In this document: positions 49,748 through 54,079 of the stretch, one piece after another
How the letters are laid out: each line of letters opens with the position of its first letter
Position numbering within the stretch: the stretch's first letter is position 1
Assembly (NCBI GenBank): GCA_050999585.1
Contig: JBPCPC010000191.1
Location: 1-62,486 of the forward strand
From: Solirubrobacteraceae bacterium
GTDB lineage: Bacteria; Actinomycetota; Thermoleophilia; Solirubrobacterales; Solirubrobacteraceae
DNA: 62,486 nucleotides
Direction: 5' to 3'
The notes under the pieces: model-generated
The model's database searches: none
What the model saw: the letters and a program-made list of their open reading frames with translations, nothing else
Told to the model about the DNA's origin: nothing
Translations under genes and position numbers: made by a program

Positions 49748-50599
49748 TCAGGCCACCCGGCGCTGCCCCTGGCGCCCGGCGGCGCAGCAGCGCTTTGCCT
49801 CCAGCAATCGCTGATCGGCCGTCTGCAGCAGCTCCGACGGTTCACCACCGTCATCCGGGAAGACGGCAATTCCGAGGCTGGCACGGACCATCTCGACTCC
49901 GACGGTGACGTCACTGACGGCCTGGGCGATCCGGGTGGCCAGCCGTTCGGTACCCTTCTCATCGGTTTCGGGCGCCAGCACGCAGAACTCGTCACCGCCG
50001 AAGCGGGCGACGGTGTCCTGGCCGCGCATCACCCGCTGCAGCGACGCCGCGACATTGCGCAGCAGATCGTCCCCGGCGGGATGACCAAAGCGGTCATTGA
50101 GCGCCTTGAAGCCGTCGAGGTCGAGCATCGTGAGGGCAAAGCTGCGCCCCGCGCGGTGGTGGCGCGCGACCTCGTAGTCGGCGCAAATCAGCAGCGAGCG
50201 CCGGTTCGCGATCCCGGTTAGCGGATCGGAGAGGGCGTAGCCGCGCAGCGCGGCGCTCTCGCGCACGAGCCGCTCGCGGACCACGATCAGGACCGCGGCG
50301 CAGCCGGCGAGGACCAGCAACAGCAGCGCCGCTGACGGCCGGCCGGACGAGGAGACCACCAGCGCCGGAGCGAGCCCCGCCGCCGCCGCGGCGCCCGCGG
50401 CCAGGACCGCGCCGCGGGGGGTCGCGCACGCCGCACAGGCCAGCATCGCCAGCGGTACGCACAGCCACGTCGCGCCGCCCGCCCGGCCGAACAATGAGAT
50501 CGCCGCGGCGATCACGCAGATCGCCGCCACCCGGGTCGGCGCCGCCGGCGGTCCGAGCGGACCGCGCTGGAACATCCTGGCCTGAGAGGTCGCGCGCAT
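49748..50599 (-). CDS. Membrane diguanylate cyclase
   Basis: N-terminal TMs, [28 protein letters not shown]-site, intact GGDEF; start uncertain (50575 or 50599). Confidence 0.92.
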
Positions 50600-50698
50600 G
50601 GCCAAAGTGTGGCCCGGGCCGCGGACGCGCTTCCCCCCTGCTCTGGCGCCCGGCCGCAGTCTTGCGCGCCGCGACCCCCGCGCGATTACCATGGCGCC

Positions 50699-51397
50699 GT
50701 GACCGAAGACACCTCGCCCCCGTCCCGGGTCCGCGTCCCCGCCGCCGACCGGGTCGCTTCGATCGTCTCGGCTGCCGAGGAGCTGGCCGAGCAGATGCGC
50801 GCCGAGACCGAGAGCCGGGTCCGCGAGCGCATCGCGGAGAGCGACCGCGCCGCCCAGTACCGGGTCGACGCCGCCGAGGAAGAGGCCAGCGAGGTCCTGG
50901 CAACGGCGCGCACCGAGGCCGACCGGCTGCGCCGCGAGGGCCAGCAGCGCGACGAGCAGGCCAAGACGACCGCCACCAGCGAGTCGCTGACGATCGTCGG
51001 CAAGGCCCATGAGAGCGCCGACGCCGCGCTCGCCGAGGCCGAGCAGTCCGCGGCGCGCCGACGCGAGGAGGCCGATCGCTACACCCGTGAGCTGCTCTCC
51101 GAGGCCCGTCAGACCGCTCAGGAGGTCCGCAGCGAGGGCATGGAGCTCGTCGCCAACCTGCGTCAGATGGGCGATGCGCTGCGCTCCAACGCCGAGCGGA
51201 TCCTGCGCGACGTGCAGGGCGTTCACTCGCAGATGATGGCCAAGATCGAGCGCATCGAGCGGACCAGCGGAGTGTCCTTCACCACCTCCACGCGGACGCG
51301 GGGCGACCGCGCCCGGGAGTCGCTGGCGCGCGGCCCGTTCGACGCCGACGACGAAGGCGATGTGCCCAACGTGCCGGAGTTCATCCCCCGCCGCTGA
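50699..51397 (+). CDS. DivIVA/Scy-like coiled-coil protein
   Basis: Repeated A.EEA..L..A..EA..L helices; C-terminal VPEFIPRR. Confidence 0.75.
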   Translation: MTEDTSPPSRVRVPAADRVASIVSAAEELAEQMRAETESRVRERIAESDRAAQYRVDAAEEEASEVLATARTEADRLRREGQQRDEQAKTTATSESLTIVGKAHESADAALAEAEQSAARRREEADRYTRELLSEARQTAQEVRSEGMELVANLRQMGDALRSNAERILRDVQGVHSQMMAKIERIERTSGVSFTTSTRTRGDRARESLARGPFDADDEGDVPNVPEFIPRR

Positions 51398-51431
51398 GCC
51401 CGAGCGGCGTGGGTTCTGTCCGCCGTCGATG

Positions 51432-51445
51432 CGAACATATGTTCG
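51432..51445 (+). promoter_or_regulatory. LexA (SOS) box
   Basis: CGAAC-ATAT-GTTCG, a perfect palindrome matching the Gram-positive/actinobacterial CGAAC-N4-GTTCG consensus; abuts ATG 51446. Confidence 0.85.
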
Positions 51446-52072
51446 ATGCTGAGCTCGAACGCTAAGGGAGCGATCGCAGAGATCGAGGTCGCCGCGGCCG
51501 CCATTCGGCTCGGACTCCCCGTCTTCAAACCGCTCAGCGAGCACGGGCGCTCGGATCTGGCGTTCGAGATCGGCGACCGCATCTGGCGTGTGCAATGCAA
51601 GTGGGGCGGGCTGGCGCCCAACGGCGACACCGTCGTCGTTCGCGTGGGTGGCAACCGCTGTTCGCCGGCCGGGTACATCGCTACGACCTATGGCGAAGAC
51701 GAGACTGATCTGTTCGCTGTGTACTGCGGTGGGCTGGACCGCGCGTACCTATTGCCGATACGACTCGTGGCCGGAAAGCGCGAAATCAGGCTGCGCCTCA
51801 CCCCGGCTCGCAACGGGCAGCAGGCATGTACTACGCTTGCGGAGGATTTCGCTTTCGACGGGGCTGTAGCTCAGCTGGGAGAGCGTCTGGCTGGCAGCCA
51901 GAAGGTCAGGGGTTCGAGCCCCCTCAGCTCCACTTCATCGCCTGAGCCGACCCGGCTCGGGGCAAATGCGTTCCGGGACGGATTTGGGTCCTGGATGGAC
52001 CGCGTCGCCGCCGGCCAAGAGGTGGTGATCACCCGCCACGGCCGCCCGCGGATTCGGCTCAGCCCCGCGTAG
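51446..52072 (+). CDS. PD-(D/E)XK endonuclease (group I intron-associated, I-Ssp6803I-like) fused through a tRNA-encoded linker to a Phd/YefM-type domain
   Basis: KG.IAE, D37, VQCK, Y...E.D.FAVYC...YLLP; codons 139-163 are the tRNA; C-terminal AFRDGFGSWMDRVAAGQEVVITRHGRP. Confidence 0.85.
   Translation: MLSSNAKGAIAEIEVAAAAIRLGLPVFKPLSEHGRSDLAFEIGDRIWRVQCKWGGLAPNGDTVVVRVGGNRCSPAGYIATTYGEDETDLFAVYCGGLDRAYLLPIRLVAGKREIRLRLTPARNGQQACTTLAEDFAFDGAVAQLGERLAGSQKVRGSSPLSSTSSPEPTRLGANAFRDGFGSWMDRVAAGQEVVITRHGRPRIRLSPA
51860..51932 (+). tRNA. tRNA-Ala(GGC), CCA not encoded
   Basis: Full cloverleaf: GGGGCTG/CAGCTCC with G3:U70, D arm GCTC/GAGC, anticodon arm TCTGG-CTGGCAG-CCAGA, T arm AGGGG-TTCGAGC-CCCCT, A73. 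Confidence 0.97.
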
Positions 52073-52087
52073 ACGCGGGACTGATGC

Positions 52088-52600
52088 CTAGCCCGACGCC
52101 GACGCCAGCGCGGCCGCCGACCCCTGGTGGGCCTCGAGCCGCTGCGTGAGCTGCTGGGCCGGCACCGGCCGGCTCAGGTAGTACCCCTTTGGGCGGTCTG
52201 GCCACCGAGCTCGCGCAGCTTGTCCCACACCTCGCGGGTCTCCACCCCCTCCGCGACCACGTCGAGGCCGAGGTTGCGGGCGAGATCAATCGTCGATCGA
52301 GAGACGGATGCCAGCGCCGAGAGCTCGCCGAGCACGACCTTGGCGCGCGTGGGTTAGCGAGCATCGGACGCGCATCAGCGCCTGAGCCTCGGCGTGCCGA
52401 GCCTCAAGCTCGGCCGCGGCTGGGGGGTGGAGCTGTTCATTACCTTCAGCGTTCTCGATCAGCAGCGGCCGGTGACTCTCGATCGCGAAGCGGACGATCG
52501 AGGTGGCGATCGGCCGCCGTTCGTCGAGTCGCCGGACGGCGAGCTCGCGCTGGGTCTCGATGATCCGGGACCGGCGCTGGTCGCCGTCGAGCTGGGCGCC
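52088..52600 (-). pseudogene. Deleted and frameshifted GAF...EAL phosphodiesterase remnant
   Basis: Own translations: SIVRFAIESHRPLLIENAE (GAF-like), TRAKVVLGELSAL..RLSIDD, RSTIDLARNLGLDVVAEGVET, GYYLSRPVPA. Confidence 0.8.
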
Positions 52601-52647
52601 GGGCCTCCCCTGGTCTATCGACGCTCACCGATCGCGGCTTGAGAAGC

Positions 52648-53289
52648 CTAGGTCCGATCCTTGGCCGCCTCCAGCGCCGCCGGCGGGTCCAGCGTCGAGT
52701 CGGGGGGACCGGCTTCGATCAGCGCCAGCGCGCGATCGGCCAGGTCCGCCGCCTCGGCGCCGCCGACGTTCTCGTCGCGCAGCGCGAGGGCGAGCAGCAC
52801 TCCGCGCAGCAGCTCGGGGTTCTGCAGGTCCGCCGGGGGGCCGGCGGGCGGCAGCGAGCGGGTCGCGGCCAGTAGCCCGGCCACGCCCGACCCGCGGCGC
52901 AACAGTCCGCCCGGGTGCTTGTCGGGGATCGTGGCCACGATCGCACCGGTGGCGGGGTTCAGGACCGAGATCCGGCTGCGCAGGCCGTGGCGCTCGAGCG
53001 CGAGCCGGTAGCCCGACAGACGCAGGTATCCAAGCTGGGCCGCCAGCTGGATGAACGCGAGCGCCTCGGCGTCGTCGCGCACCTTGCCGTGGTGCAGCGC
53101 GATCTGCGTGCCGGCGTCGGGCAGGTTGGGATCGGGGTCGGGAGCGACCAGCAGGAACACCTGGGGGCCCAGCCGGCCGGCGCCGACGCCGGCGACGTCG
53201 GCCAGCAGCTGATAGCCGCCGAGGCCGAGCGCGCCGACGATCCCCGGGGGCGCTGGGTGACTGGCGAGATGTCCGGATGCAAATGACAT
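52648..53289 (-). CDS. Hypothetical protein
   Basis: Host-like codon usage, GGAG RBS, directly downstream of the AIM24 gene. Confidence 0.7.
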   Translation of the reverse strand: MSFASGHLASHPAPPGIVGALGLGGYQLLADVAGVGAGRLGPQVFLLVAPDPDPNLPDAGTQIALHHGKVRDDAEALAFIQLAAQLGYLRLSGYRLALERHGLRSRISVLNPATGAIVATIPDKHPGGLLRRGSGVAGLLAATRSLPPAGPPADLQNPELLRGVLLALALRDENVGGAEAADLADRALALIEAGPPDSTLDPPAALEAAKDRT

Positions 53290-53302
53290 GAAGGACTCCC
53301 GG

Positions 53303-54079
53303 CTAGTTGTCCAGCAGCCCGCCGACCAATCCGCCGAGGCCGCCACCGCCCGTGCGCTGGCCGTTGCCGCCGGCGCCCTCGGCCACGGGAGGATGGTAAT
53401 AGGCGCTCTGCAGGCCGACCCGACCGGGGCCGGTGAAGCGGTTGAACACCAGGTTCCCGCCGCCCCCGCTCAGCAAGCCGGTCTTGAACCCGTAGACCTC
53501 CTGGGACATCTGCACCGAGTGATCGCGATACACCCAGCCGCCCGGCTCGATGTCGATTGACTCCCCGGCCTCGAGCTGCTTCTCGAACACGTTGCCGTAG
53601 CCGTGGACCCAGACCACGCCCTCCCGGTCGGCGGCGTAGAACTCGTCGACGAAGAAGCCACCGCCGTAGAGCATGTTGGCGAAGCCCTTGATCCGGCTGT
53701 AGTCGTACTGGACATTGCCGGTGGCGGCTAGAAACTGGTGCTCGCGGACGACGATCCCGTTACCCGCCGGCAGATGCAGAGCGGCGATGTGGCCGGGAGC
53801 GTCGCGGCTGAAGGCTATTTCTCCCGCGGACTGAGCCTCGATCAACAGCAGCGGCATGCCGCCGAAGGCCCGGCGCTTGAGCCCCTTCTTCAGCGGGTGC
53901 AGCCCGATCTGCATGTTCGGGTACTTCCACAGCAGCACGTGGTGCTCGAAGTACACGGGCACCTGGCCGTCCAGCGCCATGTGCAGCACCGGGACGAGCT
54001 CGCCCTCGAGGCGGTAGGTCAGGCCGGGCGCGGCTCCCTGCGGGATCGAGGTCGGCAGGATGGATGGTGCGGTCGGCAT
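53303..54079 (-). CDS. AIM24-family protein
   Basis: GEIAFSRDAPG, VREHQFLAA, VWVHGYGNVF, FTGPGRVGLQS; start trimmed to MPTAPS. Confidence 0.9.
   Translation of the reverse strand: MPTAPSILPTSIPQGAAPGLTYRLEGELVPVLHMALDGQVPVYFEHHVLLWKYPNMQIGLHPLKKGLKRRAFGGMPLLLIEAQSAGEIAFSRDAPGHIAALHLPAGNGIVVREHQFLAATGNVQYDYSRIKGFANMLYGGGFFVDEFYAADREGVVWVHGYGNVFEKQLEAGESIDIEPGGWVYRDHSVQMSQEVYGFKTGLLSGGGGNLVFNRFTGPGRVGLQSAYYHPPVAEGAGGNGQRTGGGGLGGLVGGLLDN

Follow-up and report, generated by a model that had tools for sequence, protein, structure and literature searches.

Within a 62,486-nucleotide (nt) stretch of the Solirubrobacteraceae bacterium assembly GCA_050999585.1 (contig JBPCPC010000191.1, forward strand; hereafter the window), a single open reading frame (ORF) of 208 amino acids (aa) at positions 51446-52072 (+) encodes in one frame, without an internal stop codon, a nuclease (residues 1-138), an intact tRNA-Ala(GGC) and a Phd/VapB46-type DNA-binding domain, in that order. 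Comparison with related loci indicates that translation through the tRNA is very probably real and selected. The product is probably a DNA-damage-induced, intron-less homing endonuclease, which would cut non-self anticodon arms and co-convert its own, presumably immune, tRNA. An earlier note, made from the window alone, had described the ORF and its embedded tRNA; new beyond it are the hypervariability of the anticodon arm and two predicted promoters, one responsive to DNA damage and one for the tRNA, embedded in the nuclease gene.

Architecture of the ORF

Profile search, fold and alignment assign the nuclease domain (51446-51859, +) to the PD-(D/E)XK family PF11645 (PDDEXK_5), that of I-Ssp6803I. 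The match covers residues 4-137 (78 bits against a cut-off of 26.1), and the ORF is the only member of the family in the host assembly. I-Ssp6803I (PDB 2OST) is the best solved relative both by sequence (E 4e-5) and, using an AlphaFold model, by fold (Foldseek E 2.2e-11, TM(target) 0.79). The catalytic residues already recognised in the earlier note (E12, D37, Q50 and K52; E...PD...QxK) are aligned to those of 2OST and are invariant in 116/116 aligned homologues. Position 9 is alanine in the window protein, variable in homologues and aspartate in 2OST. The nuclease core has a ratio of nonsynonymous to synonymous substitutions (dN/dS) of 0.18 (four pairs only).

The tRNA-Ala(GGC) was located by ARAGORN and Rfam (RF00005, 66.6 bits) at 51860-51932/3 (+). 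It begins exactly at codon 139 and, taken as 51860-51932, is read without a stop as codons 139-163; the peptide quoted for it in the earlier note was correct. It is intact and uninterrupted, and its sequence is as expected of a functional tRNA, with a cloverleaf, G3:U70, A73 and compensatory stem changes; CCA is not encoded. It is also the single GGC copy in the host assembly, which is 92% complete. Minimum free energy folding was uninformative (z -0.9). Rfam search of positions 50000-54000 returned the tRNA as the sole match, with no group I intron or other structured RNA, in agreement with the earlier view of an I-Ssp6803I-family gene in which the nesting is reversed, the tRNA lying inside the nuclease gene. 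In the AlphaFold model both protein domains are confident, the nuclease with a predicted local distance difference test score (pLDDT) of ~90, and the tRNA-encoded peptide between them is predicted to be disordered (pLDDT <50 at residues 141-164).

The Phd/YefM-type domain (51950-52072, +, including the stop codon) is a predicted DNA-binding and dimerisation domain resembling the N-terminal part of VapB46. At residues 169-207 it scores above the cut-off for TIGR01552 (23.4 bits against 20.8) and slightly under that for PF02604 (28.9 against 29.8). Foldseek search with the AlphaFold model superimposed it on the N-terminal domain of VapB46 (PDB 6JQY) with a root-mean-square deviation of 0.6-0.8 A over ~40 residues. 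This match covers the DNA-binding N-terminal part only, the toxin-binding tail being absent. As previously noted, the domain has no evident start of its own: the window contains no in-frame ATG, GTG or TTG between the tRNA and Met184. Across 46 fused loci such codons occur near the start of the Phd domain in 15, at scattered positions, and a Shine-Dalgarno (SD)-like site in one. Its dN/dS is 0.11 (four usable pairs only).

No conserved same-strand toxin gene was found 3' of the Phd domain in 45 loci, as judged by inspection and all-against-all BLAST rather than by Pfam scan; the same-strand ORFs downstream of these loci (29 of at least 70 aa) resemble antisense shadows or unrelated genes. The loci do not fit a separate antitoxin gene with its own start followed by a cognate toxin gene: an SD site plus start occurs in 1/46 loci, and no conserved toxin gene was seen in this comparison. 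The domain may serve in dimerisation, extra DNA binding or autoregulation. By its sequence the ORF belongs to PF11645 and differs both from the homing endonucleases encoded in introns and from type II toxin-antitoxin systems.

Probable translation through the tRNA

Read-through was assessed at the DNA level in 60 loci from the best 80 of 149 GTDB matches (19 tRNA-only matches and one contig-end locus were dropped) and in the tRNA-Ala(GGC) loci of a survey of the class Thermoleophilia; a few genomes are in both sets. A stop-free tRNA was dropped as a sign of translation, since frame 0 of tRNA-Ala(GGC) is open in 41/41 nuclease-free loci, which served as a chance control. An open tRNA is therefore expected and proves nothing by itself; the evidence for read-through comes from the conserved in-frame Phd domain that follows it.

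One frame is kept in 46 of the 49 Solirubrobacterales loci with an intact nuclease and Phd domain, where about one third would be expected by chance. The spacer between tRNA and Phd domain varies from 11 to 65 nt, and its length is 2 mod 3 after 73-nt tRNAs (22/22) and 1 mod 3 after 74-nt tRNAs (24/24). The latter carry a D-loop insertion, the extra nucleotide of which is compensated downstream, and the nuclease tree implies five or more switches of tRNA length. Adenine at stem position 27, which gives an in-frame TAG in a 73-nt tRNA, was found in 0/37 Phd-bearing loci with 73-nt tRNAs and in 7/33 loci with 74-nt tRNAs. All of the best 120 of 1088 protein matches run through the tRNA-like peptide, in a set selected for full length. 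The recurrence of in-frame read-through that the earlier note had named as support for its model was seen, also at a second isotype, Tyr (described below). The Phd fusion is only one architecture, however: 25 of 74 intact nucleases lack it, with the ORF stopping before the tRNA (1), inside it (5) or just after it (19).

Predicted control signals of the nuclease and the tRNA

The nuclease gene is predicted to be under LexA/PafBC-type control by DNA damage. A putative PafBC-type promoter of 22 nt (TGTCCG-N10-GAACAT, 51417-51438, +) fits the consensus tGTCgg(N10)tA(N3)T (PMC8635444). It is overlapped at its -10 element by a predicted LexA (SOS) box, a perfect palindrome (CGAAC-N4-GTTCG, 51432-51445, +) that abuts the start codon and fits the Streptomyces consensus tCGAAC-N4-GNNCGa (PMC9380542). 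With the ATG 7 nt past the -10 element, the nuclease mRNA is predicted to be leaderless.

The LexA box is present in 44/46 fused loci, 9/25 unfused intact loci and 0/41 nuclease-free loci, and among the genes preceded by its 16 strict matches in the host genome are lexA, uvrA and one of two dinB genes. The geometry GTC..N10..A...T lies ahead of 55/74 intact nucleases, compared with 2-5/74 at other spacings; it is also found ahead of host recA and lexA, and a tandem WYL gene pair is present in the genome. The dual LexA and PafBC promoter of mycobacterial recA (PMC8682763, PMC8635444) shares the 22-nt GTC..N10..A...T geometry plus a LexA box. In the window, unlike in that promoter, the predicted sites overlap at one leaderless start and the -26 element is GTCCG, not GTCGG.

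Across the host genome, YGTCCG-N10-TAnnnT gave 30 matches at spacer 10 and 3-13 at other spacers, with many of the genes apparently leaderless; the motif is perhaps a clade-specific PafBC-like or a general promoter class. A role for GTCCG as an operator of the Phd domain was ruled out, as it also precedes Phd-less nucleases, recA, lexA and other genes. LexA boxes were seen 60-330 nt 5' of tRNA-Gln(TTG), tRNA-Gln(CTG) and tRNA-Tyr (C60:460, C126:6780, C94:5066), where no intact nuclease was seen; they may be remnants of elements since lost or tRNA promoters linked to SOS.

A -10 hexamer for the tRNA (TACGCT, 51832-51837, +) is predicted within nuclease codons 129-131 from the conservation of TAnnnT, which occurs at -28/-29, inside nuclease codons, in 67/71 Phd-bearing loci. 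At this embedded element the frequency of T at third codon positions is 0.73 and 0.71, against a mean of 0.13 elsewhere. In nuclease-free loci the tRNA -10 mostly lies 16-21 nt upstream, and deletion alleles keep the embedded element as a stub.

Distribution, nuclease-free alleles and decay

The fusion of nuclease and Phd domain recurs across Solirubrobacterales. PF11645 was identified in 63/301 genomes of the class, spread over five families; 184 genomes of the class's four other large families gave no match. Apart from 9 weak or contig-edge loci that were left out, 40 further PF11645 loci of the class were inspected; 39 adjoin a tRNA (Ala GGC/TGC, Thr TGT, Arg CCG, Tyr GTA or Ser TGA) and the fortieth lies at a contig end. 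All 21 loci from other Actinomycetota classes also adjoin a tRNA, adding Arg TCT; one further locus is from a genome marked unpublished and supports no claim here. Other orientations occur, in which the nuclease is convergent on Ala(TGC) or divergent from Thr(TGT), Arg(CCG/TCT) and Ala(GGC) (L094, L095, L100; L083, L089-L091, L098, L301, L302, L313, L318, L330).

At tRNA-Ala(GGC), the 23 loci of the host family comprise 11 intact, 2 partial and 10 nuclease-free alleles, and the 24 loci of its sister family 8 intact, 6 partial and 10 nuclease-free alleles, one of which keeps a Phd fragment. Intact, frameshifted, truncated and deleted nuclease alleles occur at one syntenic site; in the host family and the GTDB matches, many alleles with and without the nuclease have leuS and a coiled-coil gene beside it. 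The nuclease-free alleles sought by the earlier note thus exist at the same site. Its suggestion that the element would be hard to delete fails on these counts, with the nuclease absent from 10/23 and 10/24 loci.

Several nuclease-free alleles retain a stub consisting of the last ~35 nt of the nuclease, with the tRNA's predicted promoter; several are deletion derivatives rather than never-invaded sites. In three contigs from public runs of two studies, the upstream gene is joined to the tRNA via a stub of 28-33 nt; at 85% likeness these probably represent related organisms. Contigs related to the window omit 51934-52660. As read from these alleles, the nuclease is easily deleted and only its last ~35 nt persist. 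The tRNA-Ala(GGC) pattern itself was matched in 0/58 genomes of family f6 and 0/21 of family f10, where the tRNA may be absent or divergent, which puts its essentiality in question.

Variability of the anticodon arm and co-variation with the nuclease

The 17-bp anticodon arm of the window tRNA (51886-51902, +) forms a perfect inverted repeat centred on the middle G of the anticodon, and is the putative target of the nuclease and determinant of immunity. The arm is perfectly palindromic in 141/146 loci. By hand count, 17 arm forms of Ala(GGC) occur among 36 genomes from the two main families that bear the nuclease; in the same genomes Gly(GCC) has 3 forms in 34 and Asp(GTC) 3 in 34. In two nuclease-free families the Ala(GGC) arm has 1 form in 14 genomes and 1 in 10. 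Other nuclease-flanked tRNAs are similarly diverse in arm forms per locus (Tyr(GTA) 17/23, Thr(TGT) 10/11, Arg(TCT) 7/7), and the bystander Thr(GGT) in those same loci has 3 forms in 16. The 32-38 pair of tRNA-Ala(GGC) alternates between A-U, C-G and G-C and is nearly always Watson-Crick. A Watson-Crick 32-38 pair could affect decoding accuracy.

Co-variation was analysed by within-clade shuffling in 180 non-redundant nucleases (143 rows with an unambiguous arm, 71 variable columns). The arm changes 90 times on the tree among the 143 unambiguous rows, compared with 103-113 changes after shuffling. Residues 66, 67, 79 and 113 are the top four of the 71 columns tied to the arm, each with 0/200 nulls in within-clade permutation. 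These residues lie on or beside predicted beta-strands, in a hypervariable region (51641-51784, +) that co-variation marks as the predicted DNA-reading surface; its dN/dS is 0.43-0.52 (four pairs). The target of I-Ssp6803I is the anticodon of tRNA-fMet. Its specificity profile spans 17 bp (PMC3424549), the length of the anticodon arm.

Proposed mechanism

The element would have displaced the native tRNA promoter and would supply a new -10 within its last codons. Its PafBC-type promoter, lying under a LexA box, would yield leaderless mRNA only once recombination has been turned on by DNA damage or incoming DNA. Ribosomes would continue across the tRNA into the Phd domain, the probable role of which is to restrain or focus the nuclease by dimerisation or DNA binding. 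RNase P cleavage at the 5' end of the tRNA would leave a stop-less nuclease mRNA, since 24/25 unfused and all fused genes have no stop codon ahead of the tRNA. Clearance of this mRNA by transfer-messenger RNA (tmRNA), which is present in the host genome, would act as a built-in damper. With two alleles in one cell, the susceptible arm would be cut and gene conversion would import the nuclease, the tRNA variant and the Phd domain, through break-repair copying of the general kind described in PMC3984707 and PMC2988022. After fixation the nuclease would decay, shrink to a promoter stub or be replaced by a variant of new specificity. Arms and recognition residues would consequently keep turning over and, as new variants could oust old ones, never-invaded alleles would not be required.

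Selfish intron-less homing, as put forward in the earlier note, is retained here as the best reading, with a change of target: the likely substrate is a tRNA allele whose anticodon arm has a different stem, not an empty site. Selfish spread by cutting rival tRNA alleles is likely and would explain the unusual variability of the anticodon stem.

A number of observations weigh against homing of this kind. The nuclease tree has only 4 family changes, which is weak evidence of lateral spread, and the best 80 of 255 viral matches include no fused element. Independent-pair sign tests of the four residue-base associations were not significant (median p 0.45-1), though underpowered, and co-variation carries no direction, being the same whether a nuclease cuts or spares its own arm. 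The window arm, TCTGGC, is the commonest nuclease-free arm in family f8 (8/13) and is carried by 2/13 intact f8 elements, so occupied alleles are not simply those with a non-ancestral arm. Within the order, arm variability is 0.89 in nuclease-free and 0.92 in occupied alleles, and homing therefore needs the extra assumption of past occupancy. The Val(GAC) arm, counted without regard to a neighbouring nuclease, is itself moderately variable (8 forms in 35 genomes). GTCCG-N10-TAnnnT is also found ahead of housekeeping-like genes, so that the damage-specificity of the promoter is inferred. All seven A27 loci belong to one clade, and all dN/dS values rest on 4 pairs.

Alternative explanations

The alternative that survives best, although an unlikely one, is that the nuclease serves the host as an SOS-induced restriction system. 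It would cut foreign tRNA-gene DNA, such as phage tRNA genes or tRNA-derived attachment sites, with the variant arm as antidote and without homing. Linkage to the tRNA would keep nuclease and immunity together, phage contigs carry tRNA-Ala genes, and LexA/PafBC-type control, purifying selection, arm-residue co-variation and patchy presence fit defence too. A defence gene would, however, have no need to displace and re-supply the tRNA promoter, and tight abutment to a tRNA has arisen for seven isotype-anticodon classes; an unrelated HNH-type family shows it too. The known relative, moreover, is a homing enzyme.

Less credible again is a tRNA-linked selfish nuclease whose target lies elsewhere, in a conserved part of the tRNA or at its 5' junction, with arm variability a by-product of break repair or relaxed constraint. 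The recognition of a T-arm motif of tRNA genes by T4 SegB (PMC2330249) provides a precedent, and both the non-significant independent-pair tests and the presence of the window arm as a common nuclease-free arm agree with it. Arm variation is nonetheless compensatory, as the near-universal perfect palindrome attests, and the arm tracks specific beta-strand residues beyond clade structure. Its length also equals the 17-bp profile of I-Ssp6803I.

It is improbable that read-through is incidental, with the nuclease working as a protein of 138-165 residues and the Phd domain made separately or left as a silent toxin-antitoxin remnant. This would account for the open frame in nuclease-free loci, for the intact nucleases without Phd and for the in-frame ATG, GTG or TTG codons near the Phd start in 15/46 loci, and tRNA processing should indeed cut the mRNA. 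It does not account for a frame kept in 46/49 loci despite variable spacers and repeated changes of tRNA length. The possible starts are scattered, absent from the window and preceded by an SD-like site in one locus only; the dN/dS of the Phd domain, the lack of a conserved same-strand toxin gene and an independent fusion of a Tyr-linked nuclease to a MazE-like domain also speak against it. The least probable proposal, a fused toxin-antitoxin in which the nuclease is an anticodon RNase or DNase neutralised in cis by the Phd domain and resisted by the variant tRNA, draws on the two recruitments of antitoxin-type domains (Phd and MazE-like) and the stress-type promoter, but the DNA endonuclease fold, the presence of only the DNA-binding N-terminal part of Phd and the abundance of intact unfused nucleases speak against it.

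Parallel cases at other tRNAs

A distant PF11645 subfamily reads through tRNA-Tyr(GTA) in 9/16 class loci (L102, L104-L106, L108, L110, L111, L113, L117), in all three frames, into a shared C-terminal domain. BLAST gave no significant match between this subfamily and the window protein. The C-terminal domain is AbrB/MazE-like, with weak PF04014 (MazE) matches in 4/8 proteins scanned, all under the cut-off.

The host genome also encodes, at L201:937-1668 (C127), a LexA-boxed protein of 243 aa with two helix-turn-helix (HTH) domains, the ORF of which ends inside tRNA-Asn(GTT). An HNH-like CxxC/His motif was read in it by eye; only HTH families are among its 25 listed Pfam matches. All 25 relatives retrieved flank tRNA-Asn(GTT) (20) or tRNA-Lys(TTT) (5), and 19 have a LexA box; 13 stem forms were counted among the 20 tRNA-Asn loci. 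Judged by these sequence features, this HNH-like family is a second putative nuclease family with the same lifestyle.

Taken together with the homing reading, a broader generalisation is offered tentatively, as somewhat short of an even chance. There may exist on bacterial chromosomes a class of damage-induced selfish nucleases, of PD-(D/E)XK and, separately, HNH type, each wrapping one tRNA, and a rock-paper-scissors race on the anticodon stem may drive the evolution of tRNA stems through allele-by-allele replacement. In the Ala and Tyr cases some 75 nt would serve at the same time as tRNA, translated linker, RNase P off-switch, and determinant of target and immunity. Two separate captures would have placed DNA-binding domains of antitoxins beyond the tRNA.

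Comparison with known systems

The window gene shares with I-Ssp6803I, which is encoded in a group I intron of Synechocystis tRNA-fMet, its family, fold, catalytic residues, association with a tRNA and, between arm and specificity profile, a length of 17 bp. It differs in having no intron and an intact tRNA inside the ORF; as this tRNA is uninterrupted, immunity cannot come from an interrupted target. It also adds the Phd domain and DNA-damage promoter motifs, and has Ala9 at the acidic N-terminal position of I-Ssp6803I.

In intron-less homing by T4 SegB (PMC2330249, PMC2988022), a free-standing nuclease lies beside tRNA genes and cuts tRNA-gene DNA, as is predicted for the window nuclease. 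SegB is unlike it in being a phage-borne GIY-YIG enzyme that reads a T-arm motif of many tRNAs and is not known to read through a tRNA. The window gene is chromosomal and isotype-specific and abuts its likely target, the anticodon arm of which appears to co-evolve with it. A tRNA-adjacent gene and nuclease-free alleles with a pattern of gain, decay and loss are shared by the window family and free-standing homing endonucleases, and by analogy the window gene likely works like those of T4. A precedent for embedded host promoters is T4 segG, the ORF of which embeds gene 32 promoters, favouring its retention (PMC2988022).

The N-terminal DNA-binding and dimerisation fold of the Phd/YefM and VapB46 antitoxins (PF02604, TIGR01552, 6JQY) is shared by the window domain, which, unlike them, is not a separate gene, has no toxin-binding tail or toxin partner, and is fused via a tRNA-encoded linker. 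A full-text literature search, outside which subscription journals and preprint supplements fell, returned nothing on such an arrangement.

The locus is a conserved example of a bacterial tRNA gene that is intact and very probably doubles as coding sequence between two folded domains, with frame compensation and independent repetition at a second tRNA. It provides a testable cause for fast divergence of anticodon stems in core tRNA genes, although such genes are generally regarded as almost unchanging. If the homing reading is true, intron-less homing would be extended from T4-like phages to bacterial chromosomes and tied to the SOS/PafBC response. The natural set of 180 non-redundant pairs of nuclease and arm, with 41 unambiguous forms of the arm, is a library from which the rules of DNA recognition by a small PD-(D/E)XK nuclease with a 17-bp site could be learned. 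Where annotation pipelines suppress overlaps of coding sequences with tRNAs, such genes would be truncated or lost.

Flanking genes and a viral relative

The coiled-coil gene upstream of the element in the window (50699-51397, +) is a syntenic flank of the host locus, outside the element, and has no Pfam match above the cut-off. Just 3' of the element, at 52127-52380 (-), lies an EAL-domain fragment (PF00563, 53 aa) that is probably a pseudogene remnant. Among the best 80 of 255 viral matches, the nuclease occurs only in contig L221, the others being tRNA-only matches. At L221:1908-2420, a PF11645 gene (103 bits) apparently lies inside an intron that interrupts one tRNA gene of a cluster, and this would be the canonical I-Ssp6803I-like arrangement.

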